NCBI GenBank assembly: GCA_900763875.1
Contig: CAAFLX010000021.1
Location: 962-64,961, forward strand
From: Clostridia bacterium
Lineage (GTDB): Bacteria > Bacillota > Clostridia > Christensenellales > CAG-917
Length of the DNA: 64,000 nt
Direction: 5' to 3'
The notes beneath the pieces were generated by a model. The model ran no database searches, had not been told where the DNA came from, and worked only from the letters and a program-made list of their open reading frames with translations. The position numbers were made by a program, and so were the translations under genes. Positions within the stretch are counted from its first letter, which is position 1; each line of letters begins with the position of its first letter. Below, piece after piece: positions 27,344 to 32,774 of the stretch.

Positions 27344-28027
27344 TTATTTGCCGCCGAGGACAAAAATCTCATTGCCGTTGTATACGCCAAAAGTTTTTGC
27401 ACCGTCCGTTTGCCCTTCATATAATTGAACGGGTGACGTGCCTTTTTCAATAACGGGCTTGCCCTGCGCGTCTTTTATCAAATAGTATCCTATCATGCTT
27501 GCACTCTTCTCGGTATATTTGTAGCCGACACGAAATACGTTTATGGTATCTCCGACGTTTGCCTCGTCCAGTTCTTTTTTGTTTGCCATATACAAATACA
27601 CGACAGTATCCTCCCCGATTTTCACCGCATAGCGCATAACAACCGCAATGCTGTCTGCCGCGTTGAAGAATGTCCCATACGCGCTATCCATACTCCCGAC
27701 ATAACCGTAGGTTTTTCTAGGAACAACTGTTTGCGCATATGCGTGCATAACGCCGTCCTCGATTTTCGGTGCGCTCGGATCATAAAGATGTGCATAATAT
27801 GCGGTGACGTTTAAGCCATGAGTGTTTGTGCCGTCCGCATAATTCATCATATTCACCATATCTTGCGTGAAAGACGGATACTCAAAAGCGGCAATATCCT
27901 TGTTTAGCACTTCGGATTTAGGCTCGGCGGCGGCTTGAGCATAGGCAAACACGGCAAACACTCCTCCGACGCACAAAACGACGGCAATCAACGCAACGGC
28001 GCAAAAAAACGTAAAAGTCTTAGCCAT
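27344..28027 (-). CDS. secreted Tyr-rich protein with SipW-cognate-like signal (VGGVFAVFAYAQ), hypothetical
   Basis: I start it at the ATG at 28027 (MAKTFTFFCAVALIAVVLCVGGVFAVFAYAQ), behind an AAGGAG RBS. It overlaps the upstream stop (ATGGCTAA). The ORF track start at 28162 lies inside the peptidase gene. Confidence 0.65.
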   Translation of the reverse strand: MAKTFTFFCAVALIAVVLCVGGVFAVFAYAQAAAEPKSEVLNKDIAAFEYPSFTQDMVNMMNYADGTNTHGLNVTAYYAHLYDPSAPKIEDGVMHAYAQTVVPRKTYGYVGSMDSAYGTFFNAADSIAVVMRYAVKIGEDTVVYLYMANKKELDEANVGDTINVFRVGYKYTEKSASMIGYYLIKDAQGKPVIEKGTSPVQLYEGQTDGAKTFGVYNGNEIFVLGGK

Positions 28028-29318
28028 TTTCGCTCCTTTCGCCTGTGTTTTTGCGGTTTTGACGGCGCAATTTGGCTTGCTCTTTTTTGTAAGACTTTTC
28101 GTCCTCGATGATTTTGTTTGCGATATCCACGCTGTCTTTTGCCGCCTGCATAGCCTTTTCATCGGTGATTTTCAAGGTTATAGGCGCACTTTTTACACGC
28201 ACCTTGTTGCCTGCAACATACCTTTTGAAATTGTCGTTTGGCATAAGATATTCGCAAGTGACAATGCCTCGCTTTATCAAAACGCGCACCAAACGACCGC
28301 TTCCCGACTTGTATTCCTCAAACCTGTCGTTTGCAATTTTGCGACTACCCTCAATCGCCGCGGCGTGCGCAACGATTTCGTCGTAAAAGCGTTTTTGCTC
28401 ATCGGACAACTCCGCATATTTTTCGCTTAGCGTTTGCGTTTTCGGCTTGTCAAAATTAAGCGTTTGCGTGCTCGAATCGTCGTTTTCGACGTCTTGAACA
28501 CTCTCGTTGACAGCGGACGTTGCGGCGTTGCTTTTCTCTTTTTCGCTTTGCAATTCGCCGTTTATAGCCGCCATACGCAACGCAGATTCTTTTTTCAGCT
28601 TTCGTTCAGTAAGCAGATACGCCGCCACCGCGCACACAAACAAGACGATGCACAAATACCCTGCCGGTGAATTCATAAACACTACGAAACTGCCTATATA
28701 CGGCACTTTTTCGCCTTGATAAATTCCCCTCATTTGAGAGTATAAAACGGGGAATTTGTCCGAATATCTGTTGGCGTCGCCTTGCAAAACAAATCTCCTG
28801 TACGGGTGCGTGGCGTCGGGTTCTTTGATGTCAACTATGCGGTGAACGACCATTTTTCCGTCCACCTCGTAAACGACTATATCAAAGAGTTTGAGTTCGC
28901 TCTCTTTTGGGAGCGGCGCAACCTTTATAAGATCGAACATCTGAATTTGGTTGTCCAACTTGTTGTCGAAAAGATACTTGTTCGTCTCGTCTTTTTTTGC
29001 CATAGACTGGCTTTTCACCACCTTGACAACGGTATGTTCGATGGGTTTGTTCTCGTTGATTTTCACGCTCAACGACAGCGCAAAAACGACAATCGCGCAC
29101 ACCAAAAACAGTGCCGACACAATCTTTTCAGCCCAATATGCGGCGTTGCGCTTTGCGCCCTTTGCCTGAGCTTTTTTGATTTCATCGTCGGCAAGGCCAC
29201 CCCGTATGAGCTTTAATTGCATCTTTGCATAAACGGTTATCATCGTGGCAAAGAACGCCGTCAATGCCACGAACACAACCAAACATAGGACGAAAATATA
29301 AATCTCGTAACCCGTCAT
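28020..29318 (-). CDS. SipW-like (S26B, ER/archaeal-type) signal peptidase I with extra N-terminal TM pair and ~190-aa C-terminal domain
   Basis: KSQSM (Ser box), VVHRIV (His box) and LQGDANRYSD (GDAN..D box) appear in the canonical order, flanked by TM helices. ATG at 29318 with a GGAG RBS; TTG at 29333 is an alternative start. Confidence 0.7.
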   Translation of the reverse strand: MTGYEIYIFVLCLVVFVALTAFFATMITVYAKMQLKLIRGGLADDEIKKAQAKGAKRNAAYWAEKIVSALFLVCAIVVFALSLSVKINENKPIEHTVVKVVKSQSMAKKDETNKYLFDNKLDNQIQMFDLIKVAPLPKESELKLFDIVVYEVDGKMVVHRIVDIKEPDATHPYRRFVLQGDANRYSDKFPVLYSQMRGIYQGEKVPYIGSFVVFMNSPAGYLCIVLFVCAVAAYLLTERKLKKESALRMAAINGELQSEKEKSNAATSAVNESVQDVENDDSSTQTLNFDKPKTQTLSEKYAELSDEQKRFYDEIVAHAAAIEGSRKIANDRFEEYKSGSGRLVRVLIKRGIVTCEYLMPNDNFKRYVAGNKVRVKSAPITLKITDEKAMQAAKDSVDIANKIIEDEKSYKKEQAKLRRQNRKNTGERSENG

Positions 29319-29329
29319 AACCCACTCCG

Positions 29330-29905
29330 TCAATTTGTCTCGCTCACGGTGATTGTGATTGTCGCCAAGTCAAAAGCACTCTTGAAATCGTTGTAGTCCG
29401 CAAGAGTCGGCAACGAAATCTCGTTCATTGCAAGATAAGGCGCAAGGTCAACCGTGTATTCAAACACCGAGCCGTTTTTTGTGCCCTTGCCGAGCGCAAT
29501 GCCCGTTGTCGGATAAGCGGAGGTTGTTTTGAAAATCGCCGTACCTTTGTATTCGTTGTTTGCAAAAGCGATTTCCATTTTGAGGTTCACGCCGTTGTCA
29601 ACAACGTCTTTGTCCGCGCCTTGCGCAGGGGAAAAGGTCAATTTCACGTTGTTTTGAGTTTTGAGTCCCGTCACAAGCGTTCCGCTTCCGCCCTCTAGTT
29701 TGCCTTTGTCGTCAACTTCGATCTTAAACGTACTTGCGTCGATTGCAATAGTTCCTTTTTTTGCTTCGGTTGTGCTGTTTGCAATCTCTTTATTGAGCGT
29801 TGCATTTGCAGGAGCGACATCTTGTTGCGCATAGCTGAACGTCGCATACACGCCGCCCACGATAAGCACGAAAGCCAAGGCAAAAATAATTCCCAATCTT
29901 TTCAT
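29330..29905 (-). CDS. secreted beta-rich protein with SipW-cognate-like signal (VGGVYATFSYAQ), camelysin/TasA-sized, hypothetical
   Basis: 191 aa. N-terminus MKRLGIIFALAFVLIVGGVYATFSYAQ. AGGAG RBS. Confidence 0.65.
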   Translation of the reverse strand: MKRLGIIFALAFVLIVGGVYATFSYAQQDVAPANATLNKEIANSTTEAKKGTIAIDASTFKIEVDDKGKLEGGSGTLVTGLKTQNNVKLTFSPAQGADKDVVDNGVNLKMEIAFANNEYKGTAIFKTTSAYPTTGIALGKGTKNGSVFEYTVDLAPYLAMNEISLPTLADYNDFKSAFDLATITITVSETN

Positions 29906-29967
29906 TTGTTTGTCTCCTAAATCTTTATTTTTTTACTTTAAGTTTGTTTTATACAAAAAACGAAAGC

Positions 29968-29996
29968 ATTATATTCACGCACCCTATTTGAGTAAA
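29968..29996 (-). promoter_or_regulatory. sigma-A-type promoter of the SipW-like operon
   Basis: Minus strand: TTTACT-17 nt-TATAAT, about 60 nt upstream of the first ATG. Confidence 0.5.
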
Positions 29997-30039: not shown

Positions 30040-30074
30040 AAAAAAGCAAAAATGCACACCATAAAGGCGCACAT
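30040..30074 (-). terminator. rho-independent terminator of trxA
   Basis: Minus strand: ATGTGCGCC-tttat-GGTGTGCAT, in which 3 G-U pairs are valid only on this strand, followed by TTTTTGCTTTTTT. Confidence 0.65.
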
Positions 30075-30095
30075 TTTGTGCCAAAAGTTGTGTGA

Positions 30096-30981: not shown

Positions 30982-31980
30982 CTATCTCAAAAGCGCGCCT
31001 AGCTTGTCCATAACGCCTGTTGCCATCAGCACGCCCATCACGACAAGCAAACTTCCGCTTATGATTTTTATCACTTTAAAATGCCGCTTTATAAAGCCGA
31101 ACAACTTCTTTGTTTTGTCTGTCAAAACCGCCGTGACGATAAACGGAATGCCTATGCCTAGCGAATAACAAAGCAACAACACTATGCCCTTGACAACCGT
31201 CCCCGACGTTGAGGCAAGCGCGAGTGCCGAGCCCAAAAACGCGCCTGTACACGGGCCTACGCCCACCGCAAACACTATGCCGAACAAGAATGCCGACCAC
31301 ACGCTTTTTATCTTGTACGTCTTTCTGATTCCTTTGAAAAACGGCAATCTAAACAGCCCGATGTACGACAATCCGAATATTATGACAATGACGCCGGCAA
31401 CGATGTTTATGATTTTTTTGTACTTGGCGATATATCCGCTGACAAGCCCCACAAGTCCGCCGAACACGATAAACATCAACGTGAACCCAAGCACGAAAAA
31501 CAGCGACATCACAAGCACGCGATACTTTTTCTTGCTCGCTTTCTTTTTCTCGGCGTTTGGCAAAGCGATTTCGCCTGCCGCCGCTTTGTCCGATACGATT
31601 TCGTCGCCCCCGCCTACGTTTGAAATGTCGGCAACGGCTGTTTGTTTTTCGTTGTTAGTCGCTGTAGCGTCGGCAACGACTTGCTCGATTGCAGCTACGC
31701 TATCCGCATTTGCATGGGCAACGAGGCTGTTTTCATCATCGGTTTCGAGTGCCAAATCTTTGTCGGCAAGAATCGTTTCGGCATCGGAGTTTGAAACGGT
31801 TTCGTTTACACCGCCTTGCTCAAACGCCGTTTCAACGTTCGCATCGGCAAGCGGCGGTTGAGACTCGCTCTCCGATTCGTCGTCGCCTGCAAAATAGGAA
31901 AGATACAGCGGTATCATCGGCAGCATACACGGCGATACAAACGACGCAAGCCCTTCAAGAAACGTCAGCAAAAAGTCCAT
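30982..31980 (-). CDS. ccdA: CcdA/DsbD-core thiol-disulfide transporter with ~120-aa acidic insertion after TM1
   Basis: LASFVSPCMLPMIPLYLSYFAG (TM1 Cys-Pro motif) and VGPCTGAFLG (second Cys motif). The insertion spans res 33-152. Confidence 0.8.
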   Translation of the reverse strand: MDFLLTFLEGLASFVSPCMLPMIPLYLSYFAGDDESESESQPPLADANVETAFEQGGVNETVSNSDAETILADKDLALETDDENSLVAHANADSVAAIEQVVADATATNNEKQTAVADISNVGGGDEIVSDKAAAGEIALPNAEKKKASKKKYRVLVMSLFFVLGFTLMFIVFGGLVGLVSGYIAKYKKIINIVAGVIVIIFGLSYIGLFRLPFFKGIRKTYKIKSVWSAFLFGIVFAVGVGPCTGAFLGSALALASTSGTVVKGIVLLLCYSLGIGIPFIVTAVLTDKTKKLFGFIKRHFKVIKIISGSLLVVMGVLMATGVMDKLGALLR

Positions 31981-32108: not shown

Positions 32109-32774
32109 TTACATTAAATCTTTTAGTTTTTGCATGTCGAGAATTTTGATTTTGCCTCGTCCGTATTCGACAATGCCGTCCTTTGCAAATTGCCGTATGG
32201 TTTTGCCTGCCACCTCTCGTGCGGAACTGGTCATTTTGGCAATCTCCTCTTGGGTGATATGAAACTCGGTTTCGCCCGTGTAGACGTATCTTTCAACCAA
32301 AAACGCCGCCATTCTCCTCTCGTAGCGAGTGAACAAAAGGCTGTGCAACGTCGTCATACACATCGAAAACCTGTCCGCCAGCGTTTCAAAAATCACGCAG
32401 CGCACCTGCACGTTCTCGTCCATAATCTTCTTGATTGCGCACGACTTGACCGCCAAAAGCACACTGTCCGTTTCAACGACAAACTTTGCGTCAAACGTGA
32501 TATGCTCCAATATGCAAGCCGCCGACAACAACCCCATTTCGTTTGCGCGCAACTCAAACAGCGTGATTTCTCTGAAATTTTCATCATCGATTATCGCCCT
32601 AACTTCGCCGTCAAGAATCAAAAACGGGCCGATGCAGTGATTGATAAGCCCCGTGATGACTTCCCCCTTTTTGCACACCACGATTTCGGAATCATTCAGC
32701 ACGATATCCTTTTGCTCGTCAGTCAAATATTCATAAAATGGCAAATCTTGAATTGCCGTCGATTTTTCAAACAT
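32109..32774 (-). CDS. Crp/Fnr-family transcriptional regulator
   Basis: 221 aa with an N-terminal cNMP-binding-like barrel and a C-terminal HTH (TQEEIAKMTSSAREVAGKTIRQF). AAAAGGAG RBS. Confidence 0.85.
   Translation of the reverse strand: MFEKSTAIQDLPFYEYLTDEQKDIVLNDSEIVVCKKGEVITGLINHCIGPFLILDGEVRAIIDDENFREITLFELRANEMGLLSAACILEHITFDAKFVVETDSVLLAVKSCAIKKIMDENVQVRCVIFETLADRFSMCMTTLHSLLFTRYERRMAAFLVERYVYTGETEFHITQEEIAKMTSSAREVAGKTIRQFAKDGIVEYGRGKIKILDMQKLKDLM

Follow-up and report, generated by a model that had tools for sequence, protein, structure and literature searches.

A three-gene cassette in a Clostridia contig

We analysed a stretch of 64,000 nucleotides (nt) of contig CAAFLX010000021.1 from an uncultured gut Clostridia bacterium (assembly GCA_900763875.1), and the word window refers below to this whole 64-kb stretch. 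On its minus strand lie three consecutive genes, here called A, B and C, which probably form a cassette for protein export and processing, with the gene of a signal peptidase placed between the genes of two secreted proteins that carry a common signal tag. The genes and the two copies of the tag are located as follows, the slash denoting the predicted cleavage site and aa standing for amino acids.

29330-29905, minus strand: gene A, 191 aa, from an open reading frame (ORF) call; secreted protein, candidate major substrate
28020-29318, minus strand: gene B, 432 aa counted from the ATG; diverged S26B (SipW/Sec11-type) signal peptidase
27344-28027, minus strand: gene C, 227 aa, from an ORF call with the start of the public gene call; secreted protein, candidate accessory or minor substrate
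29831-29857, minus strand: tag GGVYATFSY in A, aa 17-25; predicted cleavage after Ala21 (VYA/TF), the signal peptide being coded by 29843-29905
27941-27967, minus strand: tag GGVFAVFAY in C, aa 21-29; predicted cleavage after Ala25 (VFA/VF)

The three genes overlap or abut, and the ATG of gene C overlaps the TAA of gene B within ATGGCTAA. An alternative start for gene B is the TTG at 29333, which overlaps the TGA of gene A as TTGA; since the homologues begin with MTGYE, and the public gene calls agree, the ATG was taken as the start. ORF calls and a check of the junctions confirmed the reading frames, junctions and sequence motifs described in an earlier, sequence-only reading of this DNA, and VGGVYATFSYAQ was located in A and VGGVFAVFAYAQ in C. 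When the window was translated in all six frames the pattern GG.[YFW]A.[FWY].[YFWD] was found exactly twice, at the N-termini of A and C.

Recurrence of the cassette in other genomes

The linkage of the three genes was followed in two directions, starting either from the peptidase or from the tag. In a peptidase-first scan with one genome per GTDB species, 332 genomes held a relative of B and 80 loci were kept, at 76 of which the tag was present in a flanking gene. The carriers among the 80 listed were mostly labelled Clostridia (Christensenellaceae, Acutalibacteraceae, Oscillospiraceae, Faecousia and Ca. Scatosoma) and a few Bacilli, Erysipelotrichaceae, Staphylococcaceae or Anaeroplasmataceae, and these metagenome-assembled genomes (MAGs) came largely from human and ruminant gut samples.

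Flanking ORFs were then clustered over 75 related loci, using a greedy ORF caller that was crude and lost some genes, gene C of the window among them. An A-type gene (182-243 aa) was located immediately upstream of the peptidase at 72 of the 75 loci and a C-type gene, belonging to one of the homologous clusters F2 and F3 (hhalign 97.7%, E=2e-12), immediately downstream at 58 of the 75; gene C of the window falls in F3. The gene junctions typically overlapped by 3-15 nt, and the clustering revealed no further universal partner gene. The neighbouring genes vary by lineage, and the cassette thus moves as a unit.

In the motif-first scan, metagenome contigs were searched, independently of the peptidase, for DNA encoding GGVYATWxY. 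The 40 matches consisted of 12 unrelated internal ones and 28 N-terminal ones of signal type, and a peptidase homologue adjoined 23 of these 28. Four of the remaining matches were at contig ends, and the fifth, L120, resembles a downstream-type gene with no peptidase detected in the 1.2 kb upstream of it.

These scans show that the peptidase is almost obligatorily linked to two families of signal-bearing proteins with a private tag. The gene order that the sequence-only reading had likened to tapA-sipW-tasA of Bacillus subtilis is strongly kept, and the expected conservation of the three genes together was found from both directions. Since the only two copies of the tag pattern in the window both flank the peptidase, and the arrangement recurs at 72 of 75 related loci, tag and arrangement exceed what chance would give, and the recurrence in hundreds of species argues that the cassette is a real module.

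A few loci deserve separate mention. Two tandem C-type genes follow the peptidase in L012 (6730-8260) and L061 (5867-7300), and the A-type gene of L018 is apparently frameshifted, either through an error in the MAG or as a pseudogene. In L087, L090, L101, L111, L117, L124 and L125, all from non-gut metagenomes, an unrelated conserved protein (ORF of more than 800 codons) contains SVIGGVYATWMYEERMG internally; the likeness to the tag is fortuitous, and the stretch is no signal peptide.

Gene B and its predicted catalytic residues

The predicted catalytic boxes of B and its C-terminal extension are found at the following positions, invariance being that in the peptidase family alignment (A1).

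29001-29015, minus strand: Ser box KSQSM, aa 102-106, within the TIGR02228 match; Ser105 is the predicted nucleophile, and S105 and M106 are invariant
28833-28850, minus strand: His box VVHRIV, aa 157-162; His159 is the predicted general base, and H159, R160 and I161 are invariant
28758-28781, minus strand: Asp box GDANRYSD, aa 180-187; G180, D181 and D187 are invariant
28023-28598, minus strand: C-terminal extension, aa 241-432, about 190 aa; predicted cytoplasmic, lineage-specific

Searched against NCBIfam, B matched the SipW model NF046067 (E=7.5e-14, 51.7 bits; cut-off 190) and the archaeal-type signal peptidase I model TIGR02228 (E=2e-10, 40.8 bits; cut-off 51.85), the latter over aa 67-227, and the match to the bacterial S26A model was marginal (E=0.034). 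Both S26B models were matched by 17 of 17 diverse relatives of B, with best E-values of 1.6e-17 and 2.6e-15. In a search of PDB sequences the sole matches were the human catalytic subunits SEC11A and SEC11C (E=3e-3 for SEC11A), and the His and Asp boxes of B align with those of SEC11A, VVHRIV with IVHRVL and GDANRYSD with GDNNAVDD. A predicted catalytic Ser and His, not the Lys of S26A, are present together with conserved Asp residues. Judged by these matches, B is a genuine, albeit diverged, S26B peptidase with its predicted Ser/His/Asp set intact, and the identity given to the middle protein from its motifs is thereby borne out.

By hydropathy, B is predicted to cross the membrane three times, with helices at about aa 5-30, 65-88 and 215-238; the last two bracket the catalytic domain, and the first is extra. 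The loop at aa 30-66 is positively charged (9 Lys or Arg versus 4 Asp or Glu) and holds the invariant residues G41 and D44. From the helix count and the charge bias of this loop we infer that the catalytic domain faces outwards and that the last 190 residues of B are cytoplasmic. Between the Ser box and the FDLI segment about 25 residues appear to be inserted, as judged by eye and not from an alignment.

The tail is absent from family members of about 270 aa and tandemly duplicated in P0091 and P0093, which are among some members of about 570 aa; P0002 was grouped with these two as an example of the variable cytoplasmic tail. No match to the tail of B was found in Pfam or the PDB. The tail may couple the module to some cytoplasmic process, and since SipW is termed bifunctional in the title of a reference within PMC9674648, a second, non-proteolytic role of the tail is conceivable.

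The signal tag and its predicted cleavage

An alignment of 66 A-type N-termini gave the consensus M-K-K-[LI]-S, ten hydrophobic residues and T-[IV]-G-G-V-Y-A-[TA]-[WF]-x-Y. Every one of the 66 proteins has GGV.A and the Tyr at +8, and in 52 of them the GG is placed 16 residues from the Met. The logo of the downstream genes is GG[VA][FY]A[TVA][WF]xY, and the tag common to both substrates can be written [TI][IV]-GGV[YF]A-[TAV][WF]xY. Its core, GGV[YF]A[TAV][WF]xY, contains the pattern GG-x-aromatic-A-x-aromatic that closes the hydrophobic region.

On the evidence of their sequences the N-termini of A and C have the standard layout of a Sec signal, with small residues at -3 (Val) and -1 (Ala). 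Cleavage is predicted to follow the Ala of GGV[YF]A, from the -3/-1 rule and from an hhalign comparison, at a probability of 6%, in which the tag is in register with the TasA signal (GGVYATFNY versus GGTWAAFND). In this comparison the A family and the TasA signal are paired as KKLGLII---MALVLTVGGVYATFNY versus KKLSLGVASAALGLALVGGGTWAAFND. The logos and the in-register pairing agree with the view that one N-terminal module is common to both flanking proteins. In contrast, the assertion that the module is not an AxA site of signal peptidase I was wrong in spirit, as VYA/T and VFA/V both obey the -3/-1 rule.

The tag segment might instead be an uncleaved signal anchor, with A and C tethered to the membrane and B acting elsewhere or releasing them conditionally. 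Conserved residues on both sides of the putative site could mark an interaction motif at the membrane interface, and oligomers of BsaA from Clostridium perfringens have been proposed to be membrane-anchored until SipW cuts (bioRxiv 10.1101/2024.11.04.621531). However, the catalytic residues of B are all invariant family-wide, the tag is located exactly at the end of the c-region and in register with the TasA signal, and positions -1 and -3 invariably hold small residues, so that we consider an uncleaved anchor unlikely.

Proposed processing of A and C by B

We propose, with fair confidence, that the region encodes a self-contained cassette for export and processing in which B cuts the tagged proteins A and C after GGV[YF]A. 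Both substrates would be made with short Sec-type signal peptides, consisting of a basic start and a hydrophobic helix that ends in [TI][IV]-GGV[YF]A. B, as a membrane-embedded S26B serine protease with the predicted catalytic residues Ser105, His159 and Asp181/187 in an outward-facing domain, would recognise the tag and cut after its Ala. The cut would free mature proteins starting with [TAV][WF]xY[AT]Q, and cleavage of A and C would depend on B.

Several observations weigh against this proposal. On both signal-peptidase models B scores below the curated cut-off, and neither B nor six of its relatives has a Pfam S24/S26 match, placing B as a member of the S26B superfamily and not as a SipW equivalog. 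The profile search that the sequence-only reading had proposed for the middle protein thus gave matches to NCBIfam S26B models and none to Pfam. The term SipW-type in that reading was also too simple: at 432 aa, with an added membrane helix and a tail in the cytoplasm, B is no plain SipW, and its scores stay under all curated cut-offs.

The N-termini of A and C, furthermore, gave no match at E<=10 to TIGR04088, the model of the SipW-cognate class, the threshold of which is 19 bits, while TasA as positive control scored 38-42 bits. The control sequence was verified as TasA by a full-length match of 513.8 bits to NF046066. Membership of the tag in the TIGR04088 class was accordingly rejected, and of the likeness to signals of SipW substrates noted earlier the pattern GG-x-aromatic-A-x-aromatic and the in-register pairing stand. 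The sites VYA/T and VFA/V would be acceptable to any type I signal peptidase, and the carrier genomes among the 80 listed are all MAGs.

The two substrates also covary at one position. At 39 of 40 loci both partners have F, or both have W, as the second residue after the predicted cut, the exception being a spurious distant match. The F state, however, forms a single clade in a neighbour-joining tree of the peptidases and represents one evolutionary event; the covariation is real, but being confined to one clade it was rejected as evidence of co-evolution.

A simpler explanation would be that B is a general housekeeping type I signal peptidase and that A and C are ordinary secreted neighbours. 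Both sites fit the generic -3/-1 rule, the remainder of each signal peptide is canonical in having a basic n-region before a hydrophobic h-region, and a regex search found no other signal peptidase, and no sortases or LPXTG proteins, in the window, which is a small part of the genome. This explanation leaves three things unaccounted for, namely the adjacency to two families (72/75 and 58/75) across very different contexts, the invariant GGV.A...Y tag, and the peptidase adjacency in 23 of 28 motif-first matches with four of the others at contig ends and one being L120. We therefore regard it as highly improbable, and retain dedicated processing of A and C by B.

The mature proteins and possible assembly of a fibre

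A protein identical to A is present on 12 public contigs. A profile of the A family, used in an exhaustive search, gave 747 clusters at 50% identity, 620 of them with E<=1e-10, and the members among the 150 listed are 145-237 aa long and nearly all aligned over almost their full length. For C, five close relatives were found by word search; C-type proteins are variable in size (206-380 aa among ten examples), and one relative of this type carries the public name 'hypothetical protein', the other relatives looked up carrying none. The mature parts of A and C are cysteine-free and mildly acidic.

Pfam assigned no family to A, C and ten diverse relatives, all weak matches being below cut-off, and A and C were likewise without a family in NCBIfam, PHROG and PADLOC. 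A profile of the C/F2 family found no match in PDB sequences. Neither the TasA/camelysin models (Peptidase_M73, NF046066) nor the BsaA models (TIGR04090, TIGR04089) were matched by A, C and the ten relatives.

The AlphaFold2 (AF2) model of A has a mean predicted local distance difference test score (pLDDT) of 77.5, with residues 1-34 disordered and a beta-rich domain at 37-191; over 81-190, blocks of 10 residues average 83-95. With no matches to the hidden Markov models (HMMs), an hhalign pairing that covers the signal peptide only and no Foldseek neighbour of A in the PDB or BFVD, membership of A and C in the TasA, camelysin or BsaA families was rejected. The sequence-only reading had judged the mature parts not to be TasA, and the HMM and hhalign results bear this out. 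The camelysin/TasA family and the TasA-like jelly-roll that it had named as candidates for sequence and fold did not materialise: the family search gave no match of TasA, BsaA or camelysin type, and the model of A has neither TasA nor any other PDB neighbour.

The similarity between A and C is confined to their beginnings. In hhalign, the A family resembles F2/F3 over the first 25 residues or so and not thereafter, and the first 21 residues of the mature A and C are 48% identical (BLASTP E=0.001), with nothing beyond. From the sequences, this identity exceeds what a peptidase site would require. The donor strand of TasA is formed by the residues from 28 onward, and the N-terminus of TapA is reported to be similar to this strand (PMC9674648), a relation that the identity of the mature A and C starts parallels.

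By analogy with that system, the conserved N-terminal stretch may act as a donor strand that links the uniform A subunits into an extracellular fibre or matrix, with the size-variable C-type protein in the part that TapA plays for TasA, as nucleator, anchor or tip; we put this forward tentatively, as possible but short of probable. Cleavage by B would expose the N-terminal strand common to A and C, and assembly of a fibre by the cassette is plausible from the sequences. The pointers to a donor strand are indirect, namely an N-terminal extension that is conserved, disordered in the model of A and common to A and C.

The fibre is called into question by the structural model of A. Foldseek gave no significant match to it (best PDB E=0.14, best BFVD E=0.047), and no TasA entry was among the matches shown. 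The AF2 model of C, built from 5 sequences, is unusable at a pLDDT of 37.

A and C might also be processed by B and yet be soluble or wall-associated, as adhesins or binding proteins, without polymerising. Foldseek and profile searches tie A to no TasA, pilin or other donor-strand subunit, and no LPXTG motif, sortase or chaperone gene was seen in the cassette or the window. On the other hand, 21 N-terminal residues are common to two otherwise unrelated mature proteins, and the post-cleavage motif [TAV][WF]xY shows strict conservation; recognition by the peptidase alone hardly accounts for these two features, which fit the precedent of TasA and TapA. We hold a soluble or wall-associated role to be doubtful, albeit one to be taken seriously.

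Comparison with known systems

The tapA-sipW-tasA operon of B. subtilis has the same order of substrate, peptidase and substrate and a peptidase of the ER/archaeal type (S26B). Its signals end in GG-x-aromatic-A followed by x-aromatic, and its two substrates have common N-terminal mature residues, which in TasA and TapA are those of the donor strand (PMC9674648). It differs in that B has 432 aa, an extra N-terminal helix and a cytoplasmic tail, and reaches 51.7 bits against the SipW cut-off of 190, and in that the tag of the cassette fails TIGR04088 and neither A nor C has sequence similarity to TasA/Peptidase_M73, A having none in its predicted fold either.

The sipW-bsaA-bsaB-bsaC operon of C. 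perfringens is, like the cassette, a Clostridia operon that combines a SipW-type peptidase with secreted matrix proteins, and the Bsa proteins polymerise through an N-terminal strand. BsaA and BsaB, in contrast to A and C, are remote homologues of TasA with a model of their own (TIGR04090); neither that model nor TIGR04089 is matched by A or C. The peptidase gene comes first in that operon, whereas here it stands between the substrates, and the cassette lacks a vWA protein and has no sortase nearby.

The archaeal and eukaryotic S26B peptidases (TIGR02228; SEC11A/C, PDB 7P2P and 7P2Q) have the same Ser/His/Asp arrangement as B, with aligned His and GDxNxxxD boxes. They are general signal peptidases without dedicated neighbouring substrates, whereas B has an apparent insertion and extra membrane and cytoplasmic parts. 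Archaeal TasA-like filaments, i.e. the bundling pili AbpA and AbpX and cannulae, can be compared as donor-strand systems in which Sec-exported subunits form extracellular filaments free of chaperones, and the literature discusses them together with SipW and TasA. Their subunits have TasA-like folds, a likeness not detected in the model of A.

The cassette is best read as a new variation on the familiar theme of SipW plus cognate substrates, with novelty in the signal variant, in the substrate families and in the architecture of the peptidase. A paper describing this family of cassettes was not found in the literature.

Genomic setting and a possible regulator

Further features around the cassette in the window are the following.

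29968-29996, minus strand: promoter-like site TTTACT-17-TATAAT of sigma-70 type, about 60 nt 5' of gene A; from a consensus scan with 10/12 matches, as a pattern match only
30049-30077, minus strand: terminator-like hairpin from a consensus scan, closing the upstream thioredoxin unit
30982-31980, minus strand: CcdA/DsbD-type membrane protein
32109-32774, minus strand: regulator with weak Crp/Fnr-family matches (Pfam HTH_Crp_2), separated from the cassette by ccdA-trx-trx

By their Pfam labels, the neighbours of the cassette are DsbD/CcdA with two thioredoxins at one end and an M24 aminopeptidase at the other end. Two points of the sequence-only reading, the housekeeping surroundings and a promoter of the cassette's own, agree with these labels and with the site recovered in the consensus scan as a pattern match. 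An Rfam scan of the window found no cis-regulatory RNA. A phage or defence origin was rejected, as there were no meaningful PHROG matches and no PADLOC matches, and tblastn of B against phage genomes returned nothing.

In the CcdA/DsbD-type protein, the first hydrophobic segment is followed by about 120 aa of inserted acidic, low-complexity sequence (DDESESESQPPLADANVET...), which is unusual for the family. A homologue of the Crp/Fnr-type regulator adjoins the cassette in 9 related loci, including L004 (4419-5081), L006, L009, L012, L015, L016 and L017, and regulation of the cassette by this protein is suggested tentatively. A GP20-a RNA (Rfam RF02991, 67.2 bits, above gathering) is located about 300 nt 5' of the A-type gene in L052 (3819-3915, plus strand) and L050 (3820-3915); Rfam found none in 21 other loci or in the window.

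In L018 (2615-8217) the cassette lies between sigE (NF006158, 374.6 bits) and sigG (NF006071, 361 bits), downstream of a spoIIGA-like gene. The same placement between sigE and sigG was observed in L022 and L034, and some of these MAGs are labelled Christensenellaceae. This placement hints at sporulation-linked expression in those lineages, and the product of the cassette might accordingly be a sporulation-associated structure, such as a component of the spore surface or coat or an appendage, instead of a vegetative biofilm matrix. L018, L022 and L034 are in line with such a product, genes for sporulation sigma factors or spoIIGA are near 8 of 82 loci, and TasA was originally described as spore-associated (PMC9674648). 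Nevertheless, such a context is found in a minority of loci, and the cassette of the window has a sigma-A-like promoter and housekeeping neighbours. We judge a sporulation structure to be rather unlikely.

Combining these elements on the basis of the sequences, A and C could belong to a class of extracellular filament or matrix not seen before, made by uncultured gut Clostridia. Their subunits would have a fold without known structural relatives and would polymerise through the [TAV][WF]xY strand exposed by a dedicated B; the tail of B would link assembly to an intracellular signal, and in some lineages expression would fall in the time of sporulation. This is speculative, and we consider the combination as a whole unlikely, if worth stating.

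Significance

SipW-type peptidases that serve substrates of their own have been described in a few model systems, with TasA as the substrate in Bacillus and BsaA in C. perfringens. The cassette described here would extend the principle of the dedicated peptidase to gut and rumen Clostridia that form a large uncultured group, with three departures from the known systems, i.e. the signal tag, substrates unrelated to TasA and an unusual architecture of the peptidase. None of the proteins A, B and C has a Pfam model and none reaches an NCBIfam cut-off; the invariant tag offers a simple sequence signature for annotating A and C genes, regardless of whether their products polymerise. B together with A and C would also provide a clean enzyme-substrate pair for work on the specificity of S26B peptidases. 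Should A polymerise, the cassette would represent a new matrix or fibre system in groups such as Christensenellaceae, Oscillospiraceae and Acutalibacteraceae, families that are prominent in host-associated microbiomes.

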